From: Escherichia coli
GTDB lineage: Bacteria > Pseudomonadota > Gammaproteobacteria > Enterobacterales > Enterobacteriaceae
Assembly (NCBI RefSeq): GCF_003334315.1
Contig: NZ_QOWR01000017.1
Strand: one strand, 5' to 3'
Length of the DNA: 64,000 nucleotides
Position numbers and translations under genes: made by a program. This document shows, piece by piece, positions 56,157 to 62,107 of the stretch (position 1 is its first letter; each line of letters begins with the position of its first letter). A model generated the notes under the pieces. It was not told the origin of the DNA. It did no database searches and worked only from the letters and a program-made list of their open reading frames with translations.

Positions 56157-59405
<3,249 letters not shown>

Positions 59406-59433
59406 AGGCAGTACATTAAAACAAGGAGCGGCA

Positions 59434-60345
59434 ATGTATTACGGGTTTGATATTGGTGGAACAAAAATTGCGCTTGGCGTGTTTGATAGCGGTCGGCAGT
59501 TGCAGTGGGAAAAGCGGGTGCCGACACCGCGTGACAGCTATGACGCATTTTTAGATGCAGTGTGTGAGCTGGTAGCTGAAGCTGACCAACGTTTTGGCTG
59601 TAAAGGTTCTGTCGGCATCGGTATTCCGGGAATGCCGGAAACAGAAGATGGTACGCTGTATGCCGCCAATGTCCCCGCTGCCAGCGGTAAACCGCTGCGT
59701 GCCGACCTGAGCGCACGTCTTGATCGCGATGTACGCCTTGATAACGATGCCAACTGTTTTGCCCTTTCAGAAGCCTGGGATGATGAATTTACTCAATATC
59801 CACTGGTGATGGGGTTGATTCTCGGCACCGGTGTTGGCGGCGGGCTGATTTTCAACGGCAAACCGATTACCGGTAAAAGCTACATTACCGGCGAGTTTGG
59901 CCATATGCGTCTGCCGGTTGATGCGTTAACCATGATGGGGTTGGATTTCCCGTTACGCCGCTGCGGCTGTGGTCAGCATGGCTGCATTGAAAATTATCTG
60001 TCTGGTCGCGGTTTTGCGTGGCTGTATCAACACTATTATCATCAACCGTTGCAGGCTCCCGAAATTATTGCGCTTTATGATCAAGGCGATGAGCAGGCAA
60101 GGGCGCACGTTGAGCGTTATCTGGATTTATTAGCGGTTTGTCTGGGAAATATCCTGACCATCGTTGACCCTGACCTGGTCGTCATTGGTGGTGGCTTATC
60201 GAATTTCCCGGCAATCACAGCGCAACTGGCGGACAGGCTGCCTCGTCATCTCTTACCTGTAGCTCGTGTTCCGCGCATTGAACGCGCGCGCCACGGTGAT
60301 GCGGGAGGAATGCGTGGTGCGGCCTTCCTACATCTAACCGATTAA
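59434..60345 (+). CDS. nagK: N-acetyl-D-glucosamine kinase
   Basis: ORF 59374..60345 trimmed to [15 protein letters not shown] (303 aa), ROK-family motif. Confidence 0.9.
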
Positions 60346-60360
60346 ACAACAGAGGTTGCT

Positions 60361-61200
60361 ATGCTGTCGCGTCGGGGTCATCGGTTAAGTCGTTTTCGTA
60401 AAAATAAACGCCGCCTGCGCGAGCGTTTGCGTCAGCGTATTTTTTTCAGAGATAAAGTGGTGCCGGAAGCAATGGAAAAACCAAGAGTACTCGTACTGAC
60501 AGGGGCAGGAATTTCTGCGGAATCAGGTATTCGTACCTTTCGCGCCGCAGATGGCCTGTGGGAAGAACATCGGGTTGAAGATGTGGCAACGCCGGAAGGT
60601 TTCGATCGCGATCCTGAACTGGTGCAAGCGTTTTATAACGCCCGTCGTCGACAGCTGCAGCAGCCAGAAATTCAGCCTAACGCCGCGCATCTTGCGCTGG
60701 CTAAACTGCAAGACGCCCTCGGCGATCGCTTTTTGCTGGTGACGCAGAATATCGACAACCTGCATGAACGCGCAGGTAATACCAATGTGATTCATATGCA
60801 TGGGGAACTGCTGAAAGTTCGTTGTTCACAAAGTGGTCAGGTTCTCGACTGGACAGGAGACGTTACCCCAGAAGATAAATGCCATTGTTGCCAGTTTCCG
60901 GCACCCTTGCGCCCGCACGTAGTGTGGTTTGGCGAAATGCCACTCGGCATGGATGAAATTTATATGGCGTTGTCGATGGCCGATATTTTCATTGCCATTG
61001 GCACATCCGGGCATGTTTATCCGGCGGCTGGGTTTGTTCACGAAGCGAAACTGCATGGCGCGCACACCGTGGAACTGAATCTTGAACCGAGTCAGGTTGG
61101 TAATGAATTTGCCGAGAAATATTACGGCCCGGCAAGCCAGGTGGTGCCTGAGTTTGTTGAAAAGTTGCTGAAGGGATTAAAAGCGGGAAGCATTGCCTGA
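60361..61200 (+). CDS. cobB: NAD-dependent protein deacylase (sirtuin) CobB
   Basis: 279-aa ORF with [10 protein letters not shown] Rossmann motif and Zn-binding cysteines; in-frame internal ATG at 60472 would give a shorter form. Confidence 0.92.
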
Positions 61201-61260
61201 TGCACTACGCTTATCAGGCCTGCAAGGGGACGCAATTAATTGAATTTGCGGGTTTTGTGG

Positions 61261-61290
61261 GCCGGATAAGGCGTTCGCGCCCCATCCGGC
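61261..61290. repeat. REP element (cobB-ycfZ spacer)
   Basis: Palindrome gccggataaggcgttcgcgccccatccggc. Confidence 0.7.
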
Positions 61291-61319
61291 ATAATACACG
61301 CGCACTTTTCCGGCCTCTT

Positions 61320-62107
61320 TTATCGTTTACTCGTCAATAACAATGCGGCAATAAACGTACAGACACCAATTAGCCCTGCCCAGAGTGGCGATATTCTGGT
61401 AATCGCAAAGCTATTATCGATATACAAACATAAAGCCTGATAACCCATATTGGCAATAGTCATCGCCACTGCAAATTTTAACGCATAAATAAAACGAGTC
61501 GTGTAGTAAAAGATCCTGGAAAATAAGATAAACGTCGCAGCCCAGGCGATAAAACCTAATGTGTTGGTGCTGCCGGGGGGAGCATTTTCATGCTGTTGTC
61601 CTGGATGCGGATAATACGTTAGTGGCGGCGTCGATTGTTTTAATATCTGTGCTTGTAGAACAGCCAATGCATTATTGATTCCCTGATACCAGAGATCTGC
61701 ATTTAAATAAGCCAGCGTGTGATTTTCTATCAGAAGGCCGAGATGTTTATCGTCCAGACCACTTTCAACCTGGCCGTTGGTGATCATAATTAACCGTGGT
61801 TCGCGGGTAGTAAATAGTAACAGAACACTTCCTTTTACATCACTCAATGAAGATGACGCATGCGCCAGCATCGCTTTACCATTTTGTCTGAGACTGGCTT
61901 CATTATTAATGTCGGGTAAAACCACAATAAACGGTGCAATTCCCGTTTGTTGGCGAAAAAGCTCGGCTTATGCGCGATCTCTTCAGCATCTGGTACAGTA
62001 CCGGTAACGTCCGTAAAAAGTGTCTTCATTATTGGAATTAATGGCTTGCTGGCTGCTGTCAGAGGCAGGAGTATCAGTAAACTGAGCAGTATAATGAATT
62101 TTTTCAT
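61320..62107 (-). pseudogene. ycfZ: inner membrane protein YcfZ, apparently frameshifted
   Basis: One gene split into ORF 61844..62107 (87 aa) and ORF 61320..61925 (201 aa) in adjacent frames; junction at 61962-61970 in a 2-nt homopolymer; restoring one base gives a continuous 262-aa protein. Confidence 0.7.

Follow-up and report, generated by a model that had tools for sequence, protein, structure and literature searches.

In the current study, we analysed a window of 64,000 nucleotides of Escherichia coli DNA (the whole stretch, not the gene alone) and conclude, with a probability of roughly 0.9, that its cobB gene yields two NAD+-dependent deacylase isoforms, the short one (CobB-S) being made from an internal promoter and the long one (CobB-L) carrying a ligand-responsive N-terminal tail. 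The existence of two isoforms is secure; the route to CobB-S is less certain. E. coli has CobB as its main lysine deacetylase, and as the sole one known in the papers cited here. Since the biology of its two starts has been published and is part of the K-12 reference annotation, the observation itself adds nothing new; a comparative footprint around the second start codon and two lineages without a start at codon 38 are mildly new. As a positive control, cobB also demonstrates that real dual-start genes are recoverable from sequence alone.

Identity of the gene and its annotation

The gene lies in the E. coli chromosomal order lolE-nagK-cobB. The region 59400-61300 was matched in all 5426 complete E. 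coli genomes, and strain CP53 is 100% identical to the window over this interval. RefSeq annotates cobB in CP53 from the upstream ATG (840 nt, WP_000952737.1), and in MG1655 it assigns two CDS to b1120, NP_415638.3 (1179520-1180359) and YP_010051180.1, named 'CobB-S' (1179631-1180359). Mapped between MG1655 and the window, the long start falls at 60361 and the 'CobB-S' start at exactly 60472. The cobB of K-12 (b1120) is thus the same gene as that of the window, which represents another E. coli strain, and nothing of substance differs: there is one synonymous base in 840 nt and the proteins are identical.

Pfam SIR2 (PF02146) matches residues 48-221 of the long form over the full model (1-180) with an E value of 5.8e-54. 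The NCBIfam equivalog NF001755 (PRK00481.1-5) reaches 599.8 bits (cutoff 318) and aligns residues 1-275 to positions 1-275 of its 278-position profile; the isolated 37-residue peptide alone aligns to positions 1-36 (E 8.9e-12), so that the long architecture is the curated definition of the family. In a 35-species alignment, G48 A49 G50 I51 S52, H147 G148, C155, C174, C176 and C177 are invariant. We take GAGIS to be the nucleotide-binding motif and the His of HGE/HG to be the catalytic one, and the four Cys presumably form the Zn-site. These family matches and the annotated 'CobB-S' start of MG1655 bear out the original prediction that the gene is cobB, with a sirtuin core from ATG 60472. The E. 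coli CobB chains 6RXJ and 1S5P are identical to the window protein from residue 39/40 onward; PDB chains of CobB begin at that point, and none of the solved structures contains the extension. The features of the locus are collected in Table 1.

Table 1. Features of the nagK-cobB region, in window coordinates, with the evidence for each
Feature	Coordinates	Strand	Basis
nagK (N-acetylglucosamine kinase), upstream partner in the nagK-cobB unit	59434..60345	+	RefSeq on identical CP53 DNA and MG1655; open frame
Reported CobB-L promoter interval, -417 to -30 from ATG1, within nagK	59944..60331	+	PMC6209979 deletions; coordinates converted
Shine-Dalgarno AGAGG for ATG1, 5 nt upstream	60351..60355	+	Sequence; anti-SD duplex -6.5 kcal/mol
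cobB long CDS (CobB-L), 279 aa, stop included	60361..61200	+	ORF; RefSeq WP_000952737.1 / NP_415638.3; NF001755
Arg-rich N-terminal extension, 37 codons, CobB-L only	60361..60471	+	Sequence; 80/80 loci; dN/dS 0.14; NF001755 positions 1-36; AF2
BPROM-predicted -35/-10 for a CobB-S promoter in extension-coding DNA, +51 to +83	60411..60443	+	PMC6209979; coordinates converted
Candidate CobB-S initiation or promoter signal, codons 26-43 around ATG2	60436..60489	+	Reduced pS; low RNA structure
cobB short CDS (CobB-S), 242 aa, stop included, from ATG2	60472..61200	+	MG1655 YP_010051180.1

Two in-frame starts and a basic N-terminal extension

The two start codons first proposed for cobB, ATG 60361-60363 (ATG1) and ATG 60472-60474 (ATG2), are found at these positions in one frame, 111 nt or 37 codons apart, and the context that had been quoted for the second, aagcaATGgaaaaa, is present at 60467-60480. 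A second in-frame ATG is uninformative when taken alone, because a further in-frame Met occurs at codons 2-60 in 79% of the window's 56 long ORFs.

The composition of the segment between the two starts is far less common. The ORF 60361-61200 encodes 279 aa and opens with a 37-residue peptide that holds 12 R and 3 K versus 3 D/E, giving a net charge of +12 and a pI of 12.0, in agreement with the claim that the upstream start adds a strongly basic extension. At least 15 K+R occurred in 11 of the 16,667 37-aa windows taken from the 56 long ORFs, and these came only from cobB and from one ORF of 1061 aa. The latter, which runs from 25199 downward on the minus strand and reaches up to 16 K+R, is the sole other ORF matching the basicity of the CobB tail; we take its N-terminus to resemble that of RNase E. 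With the extension, the calculated pI of CobB is 7.8 (CobB-L) versus 5.4 (CobB-S), and the calculated masses are 31.46 versus 26.72 kDa.

In the AF2 model, residues 2-28 form one helix with a low pLDDT of about 45-58; a disordered linker occupies residues 29-42 and leads to a confident core, an arrangement in keeping with a flexible polycationic tail. An amphipathic helix was also considered and set aside as no more than weakly indicated, given a modest hydrophobic moment (at most 0.45) and the low pLDDT of the modelled helix.

Conservation of the extension and of the second start

When only the core was used as query against a single genome of each species, we obtained 80 Enterobacteriaceae loci, and the extension was found in all 80 of them, with a nearly invariant centre beginning RFR[KR]. 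An alignment of 35 sequences shows R4, R8, L9, F12, K16, R17, R22-R26, F28 and F29 as invariant, including two of the three residues implicated in c-di-GMP binding (R8 and R17). The column variability of the extension is 0.106, 0.093 and 0.292 at codon positions 1, 2 and 3, a codon periodicity, and its Nei-Gojobori dN/dS of 0.14 compares with 0.04 in the core. Its presence in 80/80 loci, this periodicity and the dN/dS of 0.14 mark the extension as genuinely coding; it is under purifying selection, with a constraint weaker than that on the core.

The second start is nearly as widely kept. Codon 38 is ATG in 75 of the 80 species, GTG in three (Citrobacter) and a non-start codon in two. In one of these two, Yokenella regensburgei (L053:1501-1503), the Met38 position is GTA and an ATG occurs five codons upstream, at codon 33; in the other, an uncultured Klebsiella MAG (L069:1501-1503), it is ATA and codons 31-38 hold no ATG, GTG or TTG. 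Judging from their codons, these two lineages may make CobB-L alone or use a shifted start.

The extension has a pS of 0.531, lower than that of all 165 core windows of the same size (range 0.607-0.743). The pS dips near each of the starts, at codons 2-13 for ATG1 and at codons 26-43 for ATG2, with values of 0.49-0.50 at the latter compared with a core median of 0.665. This is the pattern expected from overlapping initiation or promoter signals, and it can be taken as suggestive only, because the windows slide over one another and related species are not independent. Within the same region, a rare Arg codon, AGA, directly follows the conserved Phe-Phe (60439-60453) in 65/80 species; a second AGA/AGG is common two codons further on, and the other Arg codons of the extension are mostly CGN. 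In E. coli, the stretch at 60439-60453 contains a T7 run, and 15-25 nt ahead of ATG2 there is a purine-rich tract. The T7 run (U_UUU_UUC) followed by the rare AGA was considered as a programmed -1 frameshift site and discarded, since the perfect heptamer occurs in only 18/80 species and much of the seeming synonymous conservation at this place is due to two-fold degenerate codons.

Initiation signals at the two starts

With an anti-SD duplex of -6.5 kcal/mol, ATG1 ranks within the top quarter of the window's long-ORF starts. For ATG2, the best duplex reaches -3.6 kcal/mol, compared with a median of -2.6 and a strongest-quartile boundary of -3.6 for random ATGs; a Shine-Dalgarno sequence at ATG2 is essentially absent or unconvincing, as its pairing does not exceed what the best quarter of random ATGs reach.

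ATG2 lies in unusually weakly structured RNA. The 70 nt around it fold with -7.3 kcal/mol versus a shuffle mean of -12.1 (z +1.84), and 196 of the 200 shuffles fold at least as well. Averaged over 81 loci, the mean-MFE profile has its minimum just upstream of ATG2 and a second low in the ATG1 region. Low structure is not unique to ATG2, as two core positions (+183 and +297) are about as open.

Published isoforms and the upstream DNA that they require

The original two-isoform description was made in Salmonella by Tucker and Escalante-Semerena (2010; J Bacteriol 192:6200), according to later papers that cite it. From bioinformatic inspection, AbouElfetouh et al. (2014; PMC4335977) expected E. 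coli to have both isoforms, like Salmonella. Western blots by Umehara et al. (2018; PMC6209979) subsequently showed CobB-L (279 aa) and CobB-S (242 aa), which differ in the upstream DNA that they require. In a 2026 NAR paper, an anti-CobB antibody revealed proteins of 31.5 and 26.7 kDa in extracts of MG1655 (PMC12926920), and our calculated masses agree with these sizes. The western blot that had been proposed for resolving the two isoforms has therefore been published already, and the statement in the original prediction that long and short CobB forms had been described proved accurate, being supported by the RefSeq CDS pair of MG1655 and by both of the latter studies.

The deletion mapping of Umehara et al. 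used plasmid-borne, C-terminally His-tagged cobB in DH10B, read out by western blot. Both isoforms were obtained when 1218 or 417 nt of upstream DNA were included, CobB-S alone with 30 nt or with the bare long ORF, and neither with the bare short ORF (PMC6209979). From this outcome on plasmids, transcription for CobB-S would have to begin within the extension-coding DNA, +1 to +111, to which that study assigned the CobB-S promoter; the -35/-10 elements placed there are a BPROM guess. Two in-frame starts thus stand as first proposed, and the single message that the proposal implied has to be qualified, since the deletions indicate that CobB-S needs +1 to +111, which has been read as a second promoter (PMC6209979).

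Our scan of 59350-61400 with a sigma-70 consensus gave 0 hits versus 1.8 expected by chance, so that neither the internal promoter nor the one in nagK gains support at the sequence level, and the same scan found no intrinsic terminator-like site directly after cobB. The TRAINSPOTTER supplements mention neither cobB, b1120 nor P75960, and the available portion of the Cappable-seq supplementary text gives no coordinates near cobB in either K-12 numbering.

Proposed origin of the two isoforms and alternative explanations

We propose that CobB-L (279 aa, 31.5 kDa) is translated from ATG 60361, with its good Shine-Dalgarno sequence, on transcripts beginning in or upstream of nagK, and that CobB-S (242 aa, 26.7 kDa) is translated from ATG 60472 on a separate transcript with a short leader, which the published deletions assign to a promoter inside the 111 nt of extension-coding DNA. 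The sirtuin catalytic core is complete in both isoforms. We infer in this scheme the exact internal promoter and start site, the contribution of the long mRNA to CobB-S and how the isoforms divide their physiological roles.

An account that dispenses with a dedicated promoter, in which CobB-S would arise mainly by internal initiation at ATG2, in an unstructured and SD-independent region of the nagK-cobB or cobB-L transcripts that carry both starts, appears unlikely to us. It draws on the unusually open RNA around ATG2, a property conserved across species, on the absence of a consensus promoter from the extension in the sigma-70 scan, and on an earlier reporter study which, as cited in PMC6209979, found the segment -400 to +151 of cobB to be without promoter activity; the synonymous constraint at ATG2 is also as compatible with a translation initiation region as with a promoter. 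It is difficult to reconcile, however, with the production of CobB-S without CobB-L by the long ORF with or without 30 nt of upstream DNA and with the failure of the bare short ORF to give any product, and reviews credit Salmonella with two transcription start sites. The internal promoter and internal initiation can coexist, and the latter may contribute to CobB-S.

The two remaining explanations are effectively excluded. That CobB-S is a proteolytic fragment of CobB-L is very improbable: western blots alone cannot tell processing from initiation, and the linker at residues 29-42 is predicted to be disordered and would therefore be accessible to proteases, but CobB-S is made by constructs without detectable CobB-L (PMC6209979), 78/80 species have a start codon at position 38 whereas the residues just before it vary, and both the synonymous constraint and the open RNA centre on ATG2. 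Even less credible is an over-annotated upstream ATG, with the 242-aa core as the only protein made. Every crystal structure starts at residue 39/40 and the Pfam domain at residue 48, as would be expected in that case; the coding character of the extension across all 80 species, the strong Shine-Dalgarno sequence at ATG1, the coverage of the extension by a curated NCBIfam model, the 31.5-kDa band obtained with an anti-CobB antibody in MG1655 extracts (PMC12926920) and the ligand-binding phenotypes limited to the long form all contradict it.

We tentatively consider a dual use of the 111 nt of extension DNA, which would encode the tail and in addition supply CobB-S with its promoter, with an SD-independent region for initiation, or with both. 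This idea is possible rather than probable. If it were true, its footprint would be the lowest pS of the gene, centred on codons 26-43, together with the conserved AGA in the purine-rich tract and the conserved open RNA, and the GTA of Yokenella and the ATA of the Klebsiella MAG would be natural variants with CobB-L only or with a shifted start. Such a dual use would merely refine a known system.

Function of the extension

Several properties have been attributed to the extension. Polyphosphate (KD 48.8 nM) and dsDNA are bound by CobB-L only, and polyphosphate inhibits this isoform (PMC12926920). Binding of c-di-GMP, which inhibits deacetylation, depends on residues 1-37 and specifically on R8, R17 and E21. 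In Salmonella, the extension of CobB is reported to bring about oligomerisation and Zn2+ binding. N-terminal acetylation of CobB-L by YiaC/NatA lowers its activity.

On this basis, the 37-residue tail would be flexible, probably helical and polycationic, and would enable the long form alone to bind c-di-GMP, polyphosphate and DNA, to self-associate and to become N-alpha-acetylated, and most of these tail-dependent interactions and modifications would lower the deacetylase activity of CobB-L. As the tail is confined to the long form, CobB-L could be regulated or localised through it, and CobB-S would be insensitive to these ligands. The choice of isoform would then set the response to c-di-GMP and polyphosphate and the capacity to associate with DNA, and would tie the control of the acetylome to signalling by second messengers and under starvation, a link that in the 2026 study extends to DnaA and the initiation of replication (PMC12926920).

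Comparison with other systems

The closest counterpart is the cobB of Salmonella enterica, for which papers citing the 2010 study describe CobB-L (273 aa) and CobB-S (236 aa), also with a 37-residue Arg-rich extension and with both isoforms active, as well as two transcription start sites. The two Salmonella loci in our set (L023 and L024) have a 37-residue extension followed by MENPRV. Codons 37 and 38 are adjacent ATGs in Salmonella, whereas E. coli has GCA-ATG, and the C-terminus of Salmonella CobB is 6 residues shorter than that of E. coli.

Full-length and N-terminally shortened proteins are also made from in-frame starts in infB (IF2 alpha/beta), cheA (long/short) and clpB, where the N-terminal segment adds a binding or regulatory property and the shorter protein arises by internal initiation on a single mRNA. 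The cobB data differ from these cases in favouring a separate promoter inside the coding sequence (PMC6209979). The N-terminal extensions of eukaryotic sirtuins are likewise non-catalytic and serve to localise the enzyme, to bind ligands and to regulate it post-translationally, but they are unrelated in sequence to the CobB tail and their isoforms arise via splicing, while the CobB tail has just 37 residues and is polycationic.

Neighbouring features

The mechanical ORF of nagK, taken from TTG 59374, overlaps lolE, whose stop is at 59405; the RefSeq start, ATG 59434 (MYYGFDIGG...), is 60 nt downstream of this TTG. An Rfam match to STnc500, a Salmonella Hfq-bound RNA, at 60259-60470 (13.9 bits, E 0.61) was rejected as a chance match because both Salmonella cobB loci give none.

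REP-type imperfect palindromes, GCCGGATAAGGCG...CGCCCCATCCGGC, lie just past the cobB stop at 61247-61315, where the REP-derived Rfam family naRNA4 matches below threshold (32.4 bits versus a gathering score of 59.5). Further downstream, ycfZ (minus strand, 61320-62107) reads GGCTTATG at 61965-61972 versus GGCTTTATG in MG1655 and CP53, a 1-nt deletion that shifts the frame and splits the gene into the ORFs 61320-61925 and 61844-62107; this could be a true pseudogene of the strain or a sequencing error.

Among other E. coli strains, the match to E1433 ends at query base 1116 (about window 60515, within cobB), which suggests that its cobB is rearranged or interrupted. Strain 13E0780 has an IS621 insertion at the locus, and BAP1 carries an IS1 in nagK, which is annotated there as two ROK-family fragments.
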